From assembly GCA_049287005.1 (NCBI GenBank), contig JBAQEZ010000003.1, positions 181,958-245,957 of the forward strand: a stretch of 64,000 nt of DNA. The letters run 5' to 3'. Of this stretch, positions 4,287 through 64,000 are shown one piece after another (the stretch's first letter is position 1; each line of letters opens with the position of its first letter). A program made the translations under genes and the position numbers. The notes under the pieces were generated by a model that had not been told where the DNA came from, did not search any database, and worked only from the letters and a program-made list of their open reading frames with translations. Origin of the DNA: Candidatus Moraniibacteriota bacterium (GTDB lineage: Bacteria; Patescibacteriota; Minisyncoccia; Moranbacterales; UBA1568).

Positions 4287-4338
4287 TTCAAAAAGTCTTT
4301 TTTACAAGAGACCGATCTGTCCAAAGAAGGTGAGACTT

Positions 4339-4581
4339 ATGACAGGAACGAGAGCGAGTAAGAATGCGAAACTCACCTCTTCATTTTTTGCCGCCTCTTG
4401 TGCCACTTGTGCACATTTGTCGCAACCGCCTGTAGAACAGGTATCGGTGTTTTGCGTTTCCATTGTTGGTTCCATAATATTTTTTATATTAATTTTTATA
4501 TTAATGTTTATGGTACCCAATTCGACTTTTGGGCTTTGCTTAGCGCATATTGAGAAAGAAAAAACGGGCTGTAGACAATGA
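4339..4581 (+). CDS. Small hypothetical membrane protein (about 80 aa) with Cys-rich motifs
   Basis: An AGGTGAG ribosome-binding site sits 6 nt before ATG 4339. The protein has SCATCAH and CVS motifs and a TM helix (IVGSIIFFILIFILMFMV), and a terminator hairpin overlaps the 3' end. A competing antisense ORF (4302-4520) lacks a ribosome-binding site. Confidence 0.25.
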   Translation: MTGTRASKNAKLTSSFFAASCATCAHLSQPPVEQVSVFCVSIVGSIIFFILIFILMFMVPNSTFGLCLAHIEKEKTGCRQ

Positions 4582-4599
4582 TGTCTTCACCCGTTTTTT
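4561..4599 (+). terminator. Rho-independent terminator
   Basis: ACGGG...agaca-atga-tgtct...CCCGT followed by TTTTTT (4594-4599). Confidence 0.5.
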
Positions 4600-4716
4600 A
4601 TTCCTCAATATAGCTAGTATAGCAGAAAATTGTGGTCTCGTCAACCCCGATCGGGTTTCGACGGTTTTTGTCTCTTCATCCGATGTCAGGTATACTTAAG
4701 AAGTGATATCAGATGA

Positions 4717-5466
4717 GTGATAAGAGATATGGAAGATATGCGCAGGAAAATTTTTGGAACGCTTCTGATTGCGGGGGCGATGCTGCTTTCCGGATGTGCC
4801 ACTCCCGAAGTGCGTAAAGACGCACCAGTAAAAGATGACCTGTCGTTTTATCCCGATGCCAGCAAATCAGGGGTGACCGCTCCCCAAGCATCACCTGGCA
4901 ACAAGACACCGCAAGCTGTGCCAGCCACCCCACCCGTTAATACACTTACCAATAAAAAAATGTATACAACAGCACCGCAGATGGCCATCGACAAGACCAA
5001 GACGTACAGTGCGACCCTGAAGACTGATGCCGGTGATATCGTCATCGATCTCGACACCAAGGCCGTGCCGATCACCGTCAATAATTTTGTTTTTTTGGCG
5101 CGGGAAAAGTTCTATGACCATACGATTTTTCACCGCACGATCAAAGGGTTCATGATTCAGGGGGGTGATCCGGAGGGGACCGGTGCTGGAGGTCCTGGGT
5201 ATCAATTCGTAGACGAACCGTTCGCTGGCGAATACACTCGTGGTACGTTGGCTATGGCCAATGCTGGGGCGAATACCAACGGCAGCCAATTCTTCATCAT
5301 GCACAGAGACACCGCACTGCCCAAAAATTATGTGATTTTCGGGCACGTGACTACCGGTTTGGACGTCGTGGACAAGATCGCGGAAGCTCCCACTCAATCA
5401 GGTGGCGAGGGGTCAGCACCAGTCACGCCGGTTGTCGTGCAAACGATTACGGTCAAGGAGAAGTAG
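4717..5466 (+). CDS. ppiB: Cyclophilin-type peptidyl-prolyl cis-trans isomerase; predicted lipoprotein
   Basis: Lipobox LLSGC after an N-terminal hydrophobic segment. Cyclophilin core FHRTIKGFMIQGGDPEGTGAGGPGY ... GTLAMANAGANTNGSQFFI. Confidence 0.9.
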   Translation: MIRDMEDMRRKIFGTLLIAGAMLLSGCATPEVRKDAPVKDDLSFYPDASKSGVTAPQASPGNKTPQAVPATPPVNTLTNKKMYTTAPQMAIDKTKTYSATLKTDAGDIVIDLDTKAVPITVNNFVFLAREKFYDHTIFHRTIKGFMIQGGDPEGTGAGGPGYQFVDEPFAGEYTRGTLAMANAGANTNGSQFFIMHRDTALPKNYVIFGHVTTGLDVVDKIAEAPTQSGGEGSAPVTPVVVQTITVKEK

Positions 5467-59787: not shown

Positions 59788-60210
59788 ATGACGTATATGC
59801 AAGATTGGCTGAAACTATTTCCGCTTTGGTCGCGCGGAGCATCGCTCCTGTTGTGGATGGGAGTGATTTTCTTTTTTTCCTCTCTCCCCGGCAGCCCGTA
59901 TCCTTTTGAACCGACCTGGTCGTATTTTCTGGAACGCAAGAGCGCGCATGTGATGGAATACGCCGTGCTGACGATTCTCGCAGTACGCTTCGTGTACGCG
60001 GCTTTTCCGCGAGAAACTTTTTTGAACATTCTGCTGGCGGCGACGCTTTTCTCTGTCGCATACGGATCATCCGATGAATTGCATCAATTTTTCGTGCCAT
60101 ACCGCGGAGCGAAAATAAGCGATGTTCTTATAGACAGCCTCGGCGCGTTATCTCTTGCGTGCGTTTATTATGCCCTCTACCGAAAAAAGAGCCGTCTTTC
60201 GCGCCCATAA
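59788..60210 (+). CDS. VanZ-like family membrane protein
   Basis: 4 TMs, with a conserved SSDELHQFFVPYRGAKISDVLIDSLGA matching the VanZ signature (DE-x-x-Q-x-x-x-P-x-R ... D ... N/D-x-x-G). Confidence 0.65.
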   Translation: MTYMQDWLKLFPLWSRGASLLLWMGVIFFFSSLPGSPYPFEPTWSYFLERKSAHVMEYAVLTILAVRFVYAAFPRETFLNILLAATLFSVAYGSSDELHQFFVPYRGAKISDVLIDSLGALSLACVYYALYRKKSRLSRP

Positions 60211-60355
60211 AAGATGTTGGGTTGTCCGGCCTCATTTTTGGCAACGTTTATGGCGTAACGAAGCTCTTTCCTGCGTCTATCGTGGCTGAAGCTTGCGCGC
60301 CCTTTTCTTTGTTGAAACGCAGAGAAGGACTCCTGCGTCCAAAAGGAGCGCGGGA

Positions 60356-60384
60356 TTGACAAAAGTGAGTTTATCAGCTACAAT
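60356..60384 (+). promoter_or_regulatory. Consensus sigma70-type promoter TTGACA-17 nt-TACAAT upstream of nusA
   Basis: TTGACA at 60356-60361, a 17-nt spacer AAAGTGAGTTTATCAGC, TACAAT at 60379-60384. A leader of about 105 nt runs to the nusA ATG at 60497. Confidence 0.7.
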
Positions 60385-60496
60385 AGTTTATGAAAGTAAG
60401 GCTGGTATGGAAGTTCGCTCGTGGCGAGCTTTTTTCGTTCAAATGTCATATTCGGTCATAATTCGTAATTTTTTTATCCATAATTCACATATTACT

Positions 60497-61780
60497 ATGC
60501 CAAAGAAGAAACAGACCGTAGAAGAAACAGGAGCTGCTGAAGAGGGGAGTCTTTCTGGGCGCCTCGGCGAATTTGGAAGCGCGGTAATGCAGATCGCCGA
60601 AGAAAAGGGCATTTCCAAGGAACGGGTCTTGGAAGTAGTCGAGGCAGCGCTCGCGGCCGCCTACAAGAAAGACTACGGCAAGAGGGGCCAGGTAATCCGG
60701 GCGGCCTTTGACGAGGTGCAGAAAGAGGCGAAGTTTTTCTTGGTTAAAGAAATTGTCGATGAGACGACGCGTGAATTTGTCGAAGAAAACGATGAAGAGA
60801 TTGCTGACGCTCATCAGGCCAATGAAGTGAAAGAAGCGAGTGAAACGGATGAGGAGCGTTTGCCGCGCTTCAATCCAGAGCGCGATATGCTGCTTGCAGA
60901 AGCGAAGAAATTGAAAAAAGGCATCAAGCTCGGCGAAACGATCGAGTTGCCTCTCGAGAGCCACGATGAATTCGGACGAGTGGCCGCTCAGACTGCGAAG
61001 CAGGTGATTATCCAGCGTATCCGTGAAGCGGAACGTGAATCGATGTTTATCGAATACAAAGAAAAAGAAGGCCAAGTAGTCAATGGTATCGTCCAGCGTG
61101 TCGAAGGACGCAATGTCTTCGTTGATCTCGGAAAATCTATCGGCATCCTGTTTCCTTCAGAGCAGATCGAAGGAGAAAACTATCGTGTTGGACAACATTT
61201 GAAAGTGTTCCTCGTGCGAGTAGAGTCGGATACCAAGGGACCGGGGCTGCTCCTGTCGCGTATCCATCCGGAGATGGTGCGTCACTTATTTTCGCTCGAA
61301 GTGCCGGAAATCTTTACGGGTACCGTAGAGATCAAAGCCATCGCGCGTGAAGCCGGCTCTCGCACCAAGATTGCTGTTTTTTCAGCTGAAGAAGGTGTTG
61401 ATCCGATCGGCTCTTGCGTCGGGCAGAAGGGGACGCGCGTGCAGGCTATCATCGATGAATTGGGCGGAGAAAAAATCGATATTATCGAATGGAACGAGAA
61501 TGTAGAGAAGTTCATCAGTGCCGCCTTGTCGCCAGCCAAAGTGCTTTCCGTCACATTGTTTGAGGCGGAGAAGCGGGCGCTGGTGAACGTGCCAAACGAT
61601 CAGTTGTCGCTGGCGATCGGCAAGCGCGGACAAAACGTGCGTCTGGCTGCCAAGCTGACTGGTTGGAAAATCGATGTGGCAAGCGACGAAACGCTGGGCG
61701 TCAAGGAAGTTGCTCAGGAGGCAGAGGCGATTGTTTCGGAAGACGCGTCGGAAGCTGTTTCTGAGGAGGTAAAAGAATAA
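60497..61780 (+). CDS. nusA: Transcription termination/antitermination factor NusA
   Basis: N-terminal domain, S1 (VNGIVQRVEGRNVFVDLG) and tandem KH domains (GSCVGQKGTRVQAI ... SLAIGKRGQNVRLAAKLTGWKIDV), with an acidic tail. The track ORF is over-extended upstream. Confidence 0.9.
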   Translation: MPKKKQTVEETGAAEEGSLSGRLGEFGSAVMQIAEEKGISKERVLEVVEAALAAAYKKDYGKRGQVIRAAFDEVQKEAKFFLVKEIVDETTREFVEENDEEIADAHQANEVKEASETDEERLPRFNPERDMLLAEAKKLKKGIKLGETIELPLESHDEFGRVAAQTAKQVIIQRIREAERESMFIEYKEKEGQVVNGIVQRVEGRNVFVDLGKSIGILFPSEQIEGENYRVGQHLKVFLVRVESDTKGPGLLLSRIHPEMVRHLFSLEVPEIFTGTVEIKAIAREAGSRTKIAVFSAEEGVDPIGSCVGQKGTRVQAIIDELGGEKIDIIEWNENVEKFISAALSPAKVLSVTLFEAEKRALVNVPNDQLSLAIGKRGQNVRLAAKLTGWKIDVASDETLGVKEVAQEAEAIVSEDASEAVSEEVKE

Positions 61781-61818
61781 TGTATTTTTTCGGATATAAT
61801 TATTGTAAATGAAAAATT

Positions 61819-62349
61819 ATGAATTTGTGGCATGAAATTTCAGCCGGCGAAGACGTACCGAATATCATCAATGTCATTATCGAATGTCCCAAAGGCTCCA
61901 AGAATAAGTATGAGATCGATAAGGAAACCGGTCTTATCAAGCTGGATCGAGCCATGAAGACGAGCCAGGATTATCCGTTCGATTACGGGTTCGTGCCGCA
62001 AAGCTTGTGGGAAGATAATGATGCTCTCGACGTCGTATTGTTATCGACCAATCCTTTGCATCCCGGGATTCTGGTGGAAGCCCGACCGGTCGCCATTATG
62101 AATATGGTGGACTGCGGCGAAGGGGACGACAAGATCATCGCGGTTCCCAAGAGCGACCCCCGTTTTGATGAAATCCTGAATCTCGGCGATATCAATAAGC
62201 ATACGCTCAAGGAGATGCAGCATTTCTTCGAGACCTACAAGACGATTGACGGAAAAAAAGTCGTCGTAAAAGGTTTCAAGAAGAAAAGCGACGCGCTGAT
62301 CGCCGTCAAGAAAGGATTGAAAATGTACAAGGAGAAGTACGGAAAATAG
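61819..62349 (+). CDS. ppa: Inorganic pyrophosphatase (family I)
   Basis: IECPKGSKNKYEID ... DYPFDYGFVPQSLWEDNDALDVVLL ... DDKIIAV. Confidence 0.9.
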   Translation: MNLWHEISAGEDVPNIINVIIECPKGSKNKYEIDKETGLIKLDRAMKTSQDYPFDYGFVPQSLWEDNDALDVVLLSTNPLHPGILVEARPVAIMNMVDCGEGDDKIIAVPKSDPRFDEILNLGDINKHTLKEMQHFFETYKTIDGKKVVVKGFKKKSDALIAVKKGLKMYKEKYGK

Positions 62350-62397
62350 ACACGCGGCTCGTGAATCGACCGCTTAAGACGTAATTGTTCTGAAACT

Positions 62398-63687
62398 ATG
62401 GAAGTAACCGTAAAAAAACTGCCGAAATCGAAAGTGGAAATTTCCGTGACCCTGCCATGGGAAGAATGGAAGGGCGAGATGGATCATGCGGCTGAACATT
62501 TGGCGAAAGATGTGAAGGTAGCCGGTTTTCGTCCGGGCAAGGTACCGCGCGCTGTCATCGAAAAGCGTGTCGGCAAAGAGGCGATCCTCATGGAAGCGAC
62601 CGAACACGTCATCGATCATTCTTATCCCACGGTCCTCAAAGAGCACAAGATCGAGGCGATCGGTCGTCCGGAAGTGACATTGGGGAAAGTCGCTTTGGGC
62701 GAGCCATGTACCTATAGTGTGGTGACAACAGTGATGCCTGAAGTGATGCTTGCATCATGGAAAGACGCAGTGAAAAAAATCAATGCCGATTTCGCGAAAC
62801 GGCAAGATACGATTGAAGATGTGGAGATTGACGTGGAACTGGGAAAATTGGCCGATATGCGCGCGAAGCTGGTGACAGTGAATCGTGAAGCCAAGCTGGG
62901 CGACAACGTATTGGTAGATTTTTCCGTCATGCAAAGTGGCGTGCCTATCGAGAACGGGAAAAGCGAGAAGCACCCGCTGGTCTTGGGGAAGGGCGTCTTC
63001 ATTCCGGGGTTTGAAGAACAGCTGCTCGGCATGCGGGCGGGTGAGGGAAAAACATTCGAACTGACTTTCCCGGCGGAATATCACGCGAAACAGCTGGCTG
63101 GAAAACCGGCTACCTTTCAGGTGAAGCTCGGGGTGGTGCAAGAGCGCGACGTGCCGATTGTCGACGATGCTTTTGCCAAAGGGCTGGGGAGTTTCGAGTC
63201 GCTCGAGAAGTTGAAAGAAAATATGCGCGAAGGGATGCTTGAAGAGAAGACAATAAAAAGCAACGAAGATCATCGTACTACGATTCTCGACAGCCTCGTA
63301 GAAAAAGCTACCATCGATTATCCAGAAGTCCTGGTGCAGGAAGAACAATCTCGGATGGTGCGTGAATTCGAAACGCAGATCCAGTCCATGGGACTCAACT
63401 TCGCGGAGTATCTCGCTCAGACGAAGAAAACGGAAGAAGAGATGAAGAAAGAGTGGGAGCCGCAGGCGAAAAAGCGTCTGGCCGCCCATCTCATATTGAA
63501 TATGCTGGCGGATACAGAGGAGATCGATATCGATAGTCAGGAAGTCGAGGCCGAAATGAATAAAACACTCTCGAGCTACAAGAATATCAAGGACATTGAG
63601 AAGAACATCGATATGGAGCGTCTCTACAGCGCGACACGCGGACAGTTGCGCAATGCGAAAGTTTTTGAGTTTCTCGAAAAACTCTGA
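62398..63687 (+). CDS. tig: Trigger factor
   Basis: N-terminal ribosome-binding domain with GFRPGKVP, a central FKBP-like domain, and a C-terminal helical arm. Confidence 0.9.
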   Translation: MEVTVKKLPKSKVEISVTLPWEEWKGEMDHAAEHLAKDVKVAGFRPGKVPRAVIEKRVGKEAILMEATEHVIDHSYPTVLKEHKIEAIGRPEVTLGKVALGEPCTYSVVTTVMPEVMLASWKDAVKKINADFAKRQDTIEDVEIDVELGKLADMRAKLVTVNREAKLGDNVLVDFSVMQSGVPIENGKSEKHPLVLGKGVFIPGFEEQLLGMRAGEGKTFELTFPAEYHAKQLAGKPATFQVKLGVVQERDVPIVDDAFAKGLGSFESLEKLKENMREGMLEEKTIKSNEDHRTTILDSLVEKATIDYPEVLVQEEQSRMVREFETQIQSMGLNFAEYLAQTKKTEEEMKKEWEPQAKKRLAAHLILNMLADTEEIDIDSQEVEAEMNKTLSSYKNIKDIEKNIDMERLYSATRGQLRNAKVFEFLEKL

Positions 63688-63796
63688 TTTCGGATGCGAG
63701 ATGTTCGATGCATGATGAGTGGTGTATGACGGAATCTTTGAAGTTTGTCTTTCTTTATCGCTTATCCATTATCTCTTATCAATTACCCTCATTCTT

Positions 63797-64000
63797 ATGA
63801 AGAATCAATACCTCATTCCCATGGTGGTGGAAAAGACCAGCGCGGGCGAGCGGGCGTACGATATCTACTCGCGCCTGCTCAAGGATCGCATCATCTTCAT
63901 TGGTTCGCCGATCGATGATGGCGTGGCAAACGCTGTGATCGCGCAGCTCCTCTTTCTCGAATCGCAGAATGTGAAAGAGGACATCAAAATGTATATCAAC
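63797..64000 (+). CDS. clpP: ATP-dependent Clp protease proteolytic subunit; 3'-partial, running off the window end
   Basis: [53 protein letters not shown], matching the ClpP N-terminus. Confidence 0.85.

Follow-up and report, generated by a model that had tools for sequence, protein, structure and literature searches.

The window analysed here, a 64-kb stretch of a Candidatus Moraniibacteriota genome, contains at positions 60356–60496 a short element in front of nusA, in which a near-consensus promoter is followed by a small hairpin and a run of U residues. This element was interpreted, with a rough probability of 0.55, as a promoter-proximal attenuator of nusA(-ppa-tig-clpP), probably stimulated by NusA as a feedback. 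The parts of this reading differ in strength. Judged from its relatives, it is almost certainly a real, conserved cis element, and it probably acts by termination or attenuation; a response to NusA, argued by analogy, was rated slightly below even odds.

In the proposed mechanism, the sigma-70-type promoter would initiate near 60391, and about 20 nucleotides (nt) of unpaired, C-poor RNA would be followed by a short, deliberately weak hairpin (AGUUCGC/GCGAGCU) and six U residues. A fraction of the polymerases would stop at this U-tract and free an RNA of about 45 nt, and the remaining polymerases would pass through an AU-rich spacer into nusA-ppa-tig(-clpP). Proteins acting on the elongation complex would determine the read-through fraction, because there is no alternative (antiterminator) RNA fold. 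The likeliest effector would be NusA, perhaps together with NusG, and the stimulation of termination by NusA at suboptimal hairpins would result in negative feedback on the NusA level. The NusA encoded in the window possesses the N-terminal, S1 and KH domains that this role needs (Pfam). We infer the start site, the actual termination and the NusA dependence.

Conservation of the element in two clades

Relatives were collected in a one-genome-per-species scan using the NusA protein of the window, and 67 loci were obtained, with NusA 64–90% identical. Nearly all of the loci were labelled Candidatus Moranbacteria or Moraniibacteriota, and several third-party annotation (TPA) assemblies were labelled Bdellovibrionales. 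From these relatives, the window was assigned to a bacterium of the Candidate Phyla Radiation (CPR, Patescibacteria). Non-conservation of the hairpin had been named beforehand as refuting the original prediction, and the opposite was found: the module of promoter, hairpin and U-tract was present in 62 of the 63 Moranbacteria nusA loci having upstream DNA, and in all eight loci of a second clade described below. The sole Moranbacteria nusA locus without the element was L052, which has 251 nt of upstream DNA. A strict pattern (promoter score of 10–12/12, then 24–35 nt, TTCGC-loop(3–10)-GCGRRC and T4–9) was found in the window and 59 relatives; L041 and L044 carried variant stems, and L075 also carried the element.

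The leaders were aligned with MAFFT. The invariant columns were TTGAC, TA...T, UUCGC, GCG and the T-run, and the promoter spacer, the loop and the downstream spacer were unconserved. In Moranbacteria, conservation went beyond pairing and included the sequence itself, both in the 5' arm and in part of the 5' tail. Furthermore, a covariance model made from the leader alignment, with a shortened calibration and therefore rough E-values, was run over both strands of 536 kb and gave 63 matches of 36–80 bits. Every one of these was a nusA leader, and the next best match scored 30 bits. The Moranbacteria stem pattern had no other occurrence in 546 kb.

The significance of the element comes from this conservation in relatives and not from the statistics of the window. 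The window was checked by a promoter scan, a terminator scan, Pfam and Rfam. The nusA promoter scored 11/12 and was the only 11/12 match on both strands of the 64 kb; the chance expectation for sites of at least 11/12, by our own estimate with uniform base composition, was about 0.85 per 128 kb. The terminator scan listed the hairpin at 60417–60429 plus TTTTTTCGTT, and 27 terminator-like sites were found in the window compared with 16.1 ± 4.0 in shuffled sequences. Taken singly within the window, the promoter or the hairpin is no better than chance.

A metagenome scan with the pattern GAAGTTCGC-N3-10-GCGRRCTTTTTT yielded 120 matches, a sample biased by the pattern itself, and most of them were unrelated terminators sharing the A-rich/GC/T-rich pattern. 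About 30 matches were upstream of nusA, including nusA only 42–52% identical to that of the window. For an unbiased sample, one such NusA was used as the query, and eight different nusA genes were taken by protein identity alone. In this second clade, whose label Candidatus Pacebacteria rests on two NCBI source names, NusA was about 50% identical to the NusA of the window. Each of the loci showed a promoter, a hairpin of 6–9 bp and a U-tract, and then nusA-ppa-tig. The distance from the -10 hexamer to the hairpin was about 9–10 nt in most of them and about 27 nt at most. The stems were GUCCGU/ACGGAU, GUCGGU/ACCCGAC, GUCGGC/GCCGAU, GUCGGG/CCCCGAC, AUCCCGU/ACGCGGAU and GUUCGC/GCGGAC, which indicates that structure and position, not sequence, are conserved across the clades. 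Strict conservation of the stem sequence beyond Moranbacteria had been suggested by the pattern-selected matches, but it was not upheld in this leader-blind sample. The gene order nusA-ppa-tig(-clpP), which replaces the usual rimP-nusA-infB, was common to Moranbacteria and the Pacebacteria-labelled clade (L196–L204). In addition, at the Parcubacteria locus L072, a promoter and a long AU-rich hairpin were followed by CAUUUUUU, which abuts the nusA ATG.

The association with nusA was examined at promoter-like sites (TTGAC-N16-18-TAnnnT) in all collected CPR sequence, each site being scored for a hairpin plus T5 within 80 nt. Such a hairpin was found at 56 of the 60 nusA promoters. It was also found at 10 of 78 other promoter-like sites, of which eight were further nusA leaders, leaving two of the 70 remaining non-nusA sites.

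The hairpin and read-through into nusA

RNAalifold predicted a single stem of 7 bp, in which 60412–60418 pairs with 60424–60430 (AGUUCGC/GCGAGCU), with a loop of 5 nt in the window. The minimum free energy (MFE) fold of the window leader gave the same register, plus G/A-U pairs into the U-tract. The string GCTCG-tgg-CGAGC followed by TTTTTT, on which the original prediction was built, is present (60417–60421 and 60425–60429, with the T residues at 60430–60435), but GCUCG/CGAGC is not the pairing given by the MFE fold and the comparative data, and this register is unable to form in most relatives. Canonical intrinsic terminators were taken to have a G+C-containing stem of at least 5 bp, a loop of 3–8 nt and then at least five U residues in 8 nt; the window hairpin has this form, its conserved register comprising 7 bp plus extensions.

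Across the alignment, 99.3% of the stem cells were paired, compared with 28–52% when the partners were slid. Changes on both sides were observed in two of the seven pairs (A-U to G-C in six sequences and G-C to A-U in four). These changes amounted to 10 cells, a value reached in none of 500 shuffles. Two stem pairs alternated between U-G and U-A. A DNA operator palindrome for a repressor was rejected, because the loop varies from 3 to 10 nt and the arms are complementary only via G-U pairs; this dependence on G-U pairs points to pairing at the RNA level. The promoter spacer and the initially transcribed region were also compared for inverted repeats; these were not enriched (mean longest complementary run of 3.93, vs 3.92 in shuffles), and this candidate was rejected as well.

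The energies of the leader hairpins, with the U residues excluded, had quartiles of −8.2, −7.5 and −7.0 kcal/mol, and those of the second clade were within the range of the Moranbacteria leaders. Among gene-end candidates in the same sequences, defined as a hairpin and T-run at the ends of open reading frames (ORFs) by a crude ORF rule that lets noise in, 67 of 186 were at −12 kcal/mol or lower, and the strongest reached −20 to −26 kcal/mol. Several loci offered a direct contrast, since a strong gene-end terminator was located a few tens of nt 5' of the nusA promoter. Moreover, the two U residues of the 5' arm were never C, though in over half of the sequences they face a G. The stem would become stronger with one U-to-C substitution there, yet none was seen, which suggests that stem stability is held down.

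As regards a transcription start downstream of the hairpin, the other outcome named beforehand as refuting, the sole conserved promoter at nusA leaders was the one upstream of the hairpin. From the hairpin to the ATG, no second promoter was found, the best scores being equal to those of shuffled sequence (8.1 vs 7.9), and in several relatives the U-tract was only 23–26 nt from the nusA ATG. With no second promoter and a U-tract as near as 23 nt, nusA must be transcribed through the hairpin. As for an antiterminator, only the terminator stem was predicted by RNAalifold, and no segment able to pair with either arm was found. On inspection, the 5' stretch proved poor in C and unable to pair with the arms, and it is only a few nt long in most second-clade loci.

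A terminator of the upstream gene was rejected as an explanation of the hairpin, because the conserved promoter intervenes between that gene and the hairpin. It was also excluded by several relatives with their own strong terminator before the promoter and by the divergent upstream gene in L199–L201. A bidirectional terminator was rejected because the minus strand has no T-run.

The nusA ORF is open upstream to 60293 and includes an in-frame ATG at 60408. The N-terminus M[PA]KKK of NusA was conserved in 60-odd relatives, and most of them had stop codons just 5' of it. Therefore, the start of nusA was placed at 60497, and the hairpin was taken as non-coding. The ATG at 60408, which has AAGG before it, was rejected on the same grounds as the true nusA start or the start of a leader peptide. 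It was further excluded because relatives have ACG, GTG, TTG or TCG at this position and because the second clade has a different reading frame.

Known leaders and competing explanations

Leader terminators of nusA operons have been described in other bacteria. The rimP-leader, described as the most widespread attenuator, is a terminator that is short, weak and conserved in sequence, and it has no antiterminator (Naville & Gautheret 2010, Genome Biol 11:R97; PMC2965389). It has a GGGc...gCCC stem with a G-rich 5' arm, lies 4–130 nt before rimP-nusA-infB, and has NusA as its proposed effector (PMC2965389). The CPR element shares with it the weak, short and sequence-conserved hairpin with a U-stretch, the lack of an antiterminator, the variable distance to the first gene (23–434 nt here) and NusA as the proposed effector. 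It differs in the stem, which was GUUCGC/GCGRRC in 60 of 60 Moranbacteria leaders in place of GGGc...gCCC; only one of the eight second-clade loci (L204, GUCGGG/CCCCGAC) had GGG...CCC. Its position agrees in part: it stands directly before nusA, in the 5' leader of an operon carrying that gene, but rimP and infB are missing from the unit nusA-ppa-tig-clpP. Its hairpin is promoter-proximal, compared with the leader of about 180 nt in B. subtilis. The CPR element would work like the rimP-leader but, judged by its sequence, is not a member of it.

Four Firmicutes loci from the genome scan, serving as controls, showed the rimP-leader stem, AGAGUGGG-loop-CCCACUCU, followed by U-rich sequence. The stem sites before rimP-nusA were at about 2420–2470 in L068, 2385–2430 in L069, 2450–2500 in L070 and 2330–2380 in L071. 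All four were undetected by Rfam 15, whose RF01770 covers the Gammaproteobacteria form only. RF01770 is likewise a cis-regulatory nusA-operon leader ending in a short GC hairpin and U7, but it models a 102-nt tandem terminator/antiterminator. The E. coli positive control scored 102 bits (gathering threshold 47 bits). Neither RF01770 nor any other Rfam family matched at the gathering threshold over the whole window, and a search at E ≤ 10 on 60200–60520 gave noise only, with no RF01770 match.

According to references cited in PMC2965389, E. coli NusA represses its own operon. NusA aids suboptimal hairpins in forming and stimulates termination there, and the NusA-dependent terminators of B. subtilis often have distal interruptions of the U-tract (PMC8060035). 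The nusA gene of B. subtilis is autoregulated by a NusA-stimulated leader terminator (Mondal et al. 2016, cited from the summaries given by PMC12288461 and PMC8060035). In B. subtilis and in the present element, an intrinsic terminator without an antiterminator is located in the nusA-operon leader, and the suboptimal hairpin is the substrate class; the B. subtilis operon begins with rimP (ylxS), and NusA dependence is experimental there, whereas here it is inferred. Similarly, GraL, the leader of E. coli greA, consists of a promoter followed after about 19 nt by an intrinsic terminator; its RNAs are 37–59 nt long, and about two thirds of the transcripts stop there (PMC6829880). GreA feeds back in cis through this leader, GraL is also trans-acting, and its termination is imprecise (PMC6829880). 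GraL and the present element both place a promoter, a short stretch and an intrinsic terminator before an elongation-factor gene. They differ in the gene and factor (GreA) and in the unrelated sequence, and trans action and imprecise termination belong to GraL. The attenuator reading of the original prediction is thus well supported by the weak hairpin, the missing antiterminator and the precedents of the rimP-leader (PMC2965389) and B. subtilis nusA (PMC12288461). By analogy with these precedents, NusA may modulate termination at the window leader.

Several points weigh against this reading. Both the start site and the 3' end of the RNA are predictions, as is the efficiency of termination, and we know of no CPR transcription system assayed for intrinsic termination or NusA stimulation. 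The whole window leader was not unusually stable when folded (z = −0.99 vs shuffles). Covariation was modest in Moranbacteria, where 113 of 500 shuffles reached the two-pair count, because the stem sequence itself is conserved within this group. The U-tract is uninterrupted, unlike that of many B. subtilis NusA-dependent terminators. Furthermore, the second-clade hairpin is about 2–4 nt past the predicted start, which also fits a stem-loop protecting the 5' end. Finally, two like modules were found before other genes, at 4553–4644 of the window on the minus strand and before tig in L204, so the architecture is not exclusive to nusA.

Among the alternatives, a constitutive attenuator that stops a fixed fraction of transcripts from a very strong promoter, or one run by NusG, the uridine triphosphate (UTP) level or another protein, without NusA feedback, was considered somewhat unlikely. 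The same comparative evidence would suit it, no sequence feature names NusA as the effector, and the U-tract is perfect, like that of factor-independent terminators. In addition, the E. coli greA leader, of similar architecture, was tested with overproduced Nus factors, in a section whose heading says that no such factor affects greA regulation (PMC6829880). The feedback by NusA is favoured over it because two very different clades tie the module tightly to nusA, because hairpin stability is weak and narrowly distributed, and because NusA feedback has an experimental precedent at nusA-operon leaders.

A bolder version, in which the hairpin is a dedicated NusA-sensing RNA, was considered unlikely. 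The S1 and KH domains might read its sequence, and the released RNA of about 35–60 nt might act in trans. The near-invariant 5' arm and flank GAAGUUCGC recurred upstream of nusA even where NusA was about 50% identical. Such trans action might be imagined, by analogy with GraL, as titrating NusA or targeting other transcripts.

A stand-alone gene for an abundant, trans-acting small RNA of about 35–60 nt, perhaps also acting in cis like GraL, with the proximity to nusA incidental or secondary, is improbable. It would account for a compact promoter-terminator unit with its internal spacing kept, for a conservation in Moranbacteria that exceeds pairing in the 5' arm and in part of the 5' tail, and for a link to nusA that is loose in length (spacers of 23–434 nt, palindromic insertions and an intervening 23S-rRNA-intervening-sequence-protein gene in L021); GraL is a documented dual cis/trans case. 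However, nusA has no other promoter, spacers go down to 23 nt, and the element without exception lies immediately 5' of nusA in the same orientation. The second-clade RNA would be scarcely more than a hairpin, with no seed-like region and with stems varying by genome.

A non-terminating role, as an mRNA-stabilising 5' stem-loop or as a pause, protein-binding or processing site, with the U-run as part of the translation start region, is quite improbable. It would suit the second clade, where the hairpin starts 2–4 nt from the predicted 5' end, as well as L072 and the tig gene of L204, where the U-run abuts the start codon, and the genes here have no Shine-Dalgarno sequence. In Moranbacteria, however, the hairpin is 20–28 nt from the predicted 5' end, too far for protection, and the U-tract, which always adjoins the stem, stands anywhere from 23 to 434 nt before the ATG; this indicates that it is not a translation signal. 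In 70 of 71 cases, the geometry fitted an intrinsic terminator. A chance pairing of promoter-like and terminator-like strings, each singly within the window expectation, is refuted by the recurrence of the module at nearly every locus of both clades amid otherwise unalignable intergenic DNA.

To our knowledge, CPR bacteria are uncultured, have tiny genomes, and almost nothing is known of their gene regulation. No description of a nusA leader element in CPR bacteria was found in the literature. The attenuation of nusA-operon leaders, known elsewhere, would be extended by this element to CPR bacteria in a different operon context, with no rimP or infB, with nusA joined to ppa-tig-clpP, with another stem sequence and with the terminator nearly at the transcription start. 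The more than 70 sequences of a short, clean cis element provide material to ask if the homeostasis of NusA through termination in the leader is an ancestral trait or arose by convergence, and the leader could be used as it stands when termination with CPR polymerase, NusA and NusG is first assayed in vitro. The comparison also points to consensus sigma-70 promoters and canonical intrinsic terminators in CPR bacteria. A NusA-sensing RNA, if true, would act across the CPR as a homeostat of a core transcription factor, among organisms whose regulatory repertoire is minimal. No current view is overturned, and the element is unsurprising in principle.

Layout of the locus and further observations

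The element is located inside a gap of 286 nt between a VanZ-family gene (59788–60210) and nusA, and the features are listed in Table 1. The layout agreed with the original prediction in its other particulars: the TTGACA-N17-TACAAT promoter was present at 60356–60384, the leader announced as about 105 nt measured about 106 nt from the predicted start near 60390–60392 to the ATG at 60497, and by Pfam the upstream gene was VanZ rather than rimP and nusA was followed by pyrophosphatase, trigger factor and ClpP rather than infB.

Table 1. Features of the nusA leader and the downstream genes in the window
Feature	Position	Strand	Remark
-35 hexamer TTGACA	60356..60361	+	promoter scan; TTGAC invariant in 60/60 aligned leaders
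-10 hexamer TACAAT	60379..60384	+	17-nt spacer, the same in 58/60 strict-pattern leaders; T, A and final T invariant
Predicted transcription start (~60390-60392) and unpaired G/A/U-rich, C-poor stretch	60390..60411	+	start placed from -10 position
5' stem arm AGUUCGC	60412..60418	+	alignment columns 65-71; UUCGC nearly invariant
Loop UCGUG	60419..60423	+	length and sequence differ among relatives
3' stem arm GCGAGCU	60424..60430	+	99.3% of cells paired
U-tract TTTTTT	60430..60435	+	first U doubles as stem-closing base; T4-9 in relatives, mostly 6-7
AU-rich 61-nt spacer to start codon	60436..60496	+	no Shine-Dalgarno, no second promoter
nusA coding sequence, 427 aa	60497..61780	+	Pfam NusA_N, S1, KH_5
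ppa (inorganic pyrophosphatase), probably co-transcribed	61819..62349	+	Pfam; nusA-ppa-tig synteny also in second clade
tig (trigger factor)	62398..63687	+	Pfam
clpP, 5' part, continues past window end	63797..64000	+	Pfam CLP_protease

No Shine-Dalgarno sequence was found before nusA, ppa, tig and clpP (60485–60499, 61805–61821, 62384–62400 and 63783–63799), and these genes start in AU-rich sequence. This genome thus seems to initiate translation without relying on Shine-Dalgarno pairing. In the spacers from the U-tract to the ATG (window and L001–L066), GTAATT was present in 14 of 60 vs 2.8 expected, and TAATTT in 23 of 60 vs 5.5 expected. Most of the copies were 14–43 nt 5' of the nusA ATG; the window copy was at 60458–60472. 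The related CGTAATTG was found 20 nt before tig (62378–62387). The motif could mark the start of translation or serve as a weak -10-like element.

The spacer between the U-tract and the ATG ranged from 23 to 434 nt among relatives and tolerates insertions. Long palindromic inserts resembling miniature inverted-repeat transposable elements (MITEs) were observed in the nusA spacers of L004, L010, L029, L053, L063 and L075, and L004 and L075 carried the same insert (gcgaccccgcacaatttc...). In L021 (2572–3000), a co-oriented gene for a 129-aa 23S rRNA intervening-sequence protein (PF05635) was located between the leader terminator and nusA. Because of this range of lengths, the palindromic insertions and the gene uptake in L021, the spacer is best described, from its sequence, as a tolerant linker and not a separate control region.

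The two modules found before other genes were as follows. The one at 4553–4644 of the window (minus strand) consists of TTGACG-N17-TATACT, about 17 nt and AAAAAACGGGUG...CAGCCCGUUUUUU (about −14.7 kcal/mol), and its score with the leader covariance model was 30 bits. About 85 nt past it, an ORF of 57 aa (4474..4302) has a hydrophobic C-terminus in addition to a CxxC motif and gave no Pfam match. In L204 (2975–3090), a strong ppa terminator overlaps a TTGACA-N17-TAGACT promoter, and tig thus has its own promoter-proximal hairpin and U-run, with a weak hairpin GUGUCCG-caa-CGGACA and AUUUUUAUU located 6 nt 5' of the start codon.

No tRNA or tmRNA was found in a search of the window. A look-alike was observed at 4962–5054 of L090, from a marine lineage of 33% GC, and also in L106, L128 and L163: a consensus promoter was followed after 38 nt by GAAGUUCGC-UUAG-GCGGAC-UUUUUU. 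It precedes a YtxH-family gene (ytxH) and not nusA, and the contig genes include purT, rpsT, maf and a tyrA-like gene. It was treated as a look-alike that may be unrelated to the element, since the likeness was forced by the scan pattern. In L037 (6904–7040), a 12/12 promoter (TTGACA-N17-TATAAT) was located about 3.9 kb downstream of the nusA start, with weaker forms in L031 and L040. Between it and a gene whose product begins MAKREPKP is a leader of about 100 nt that is GC-rich and looks folded.

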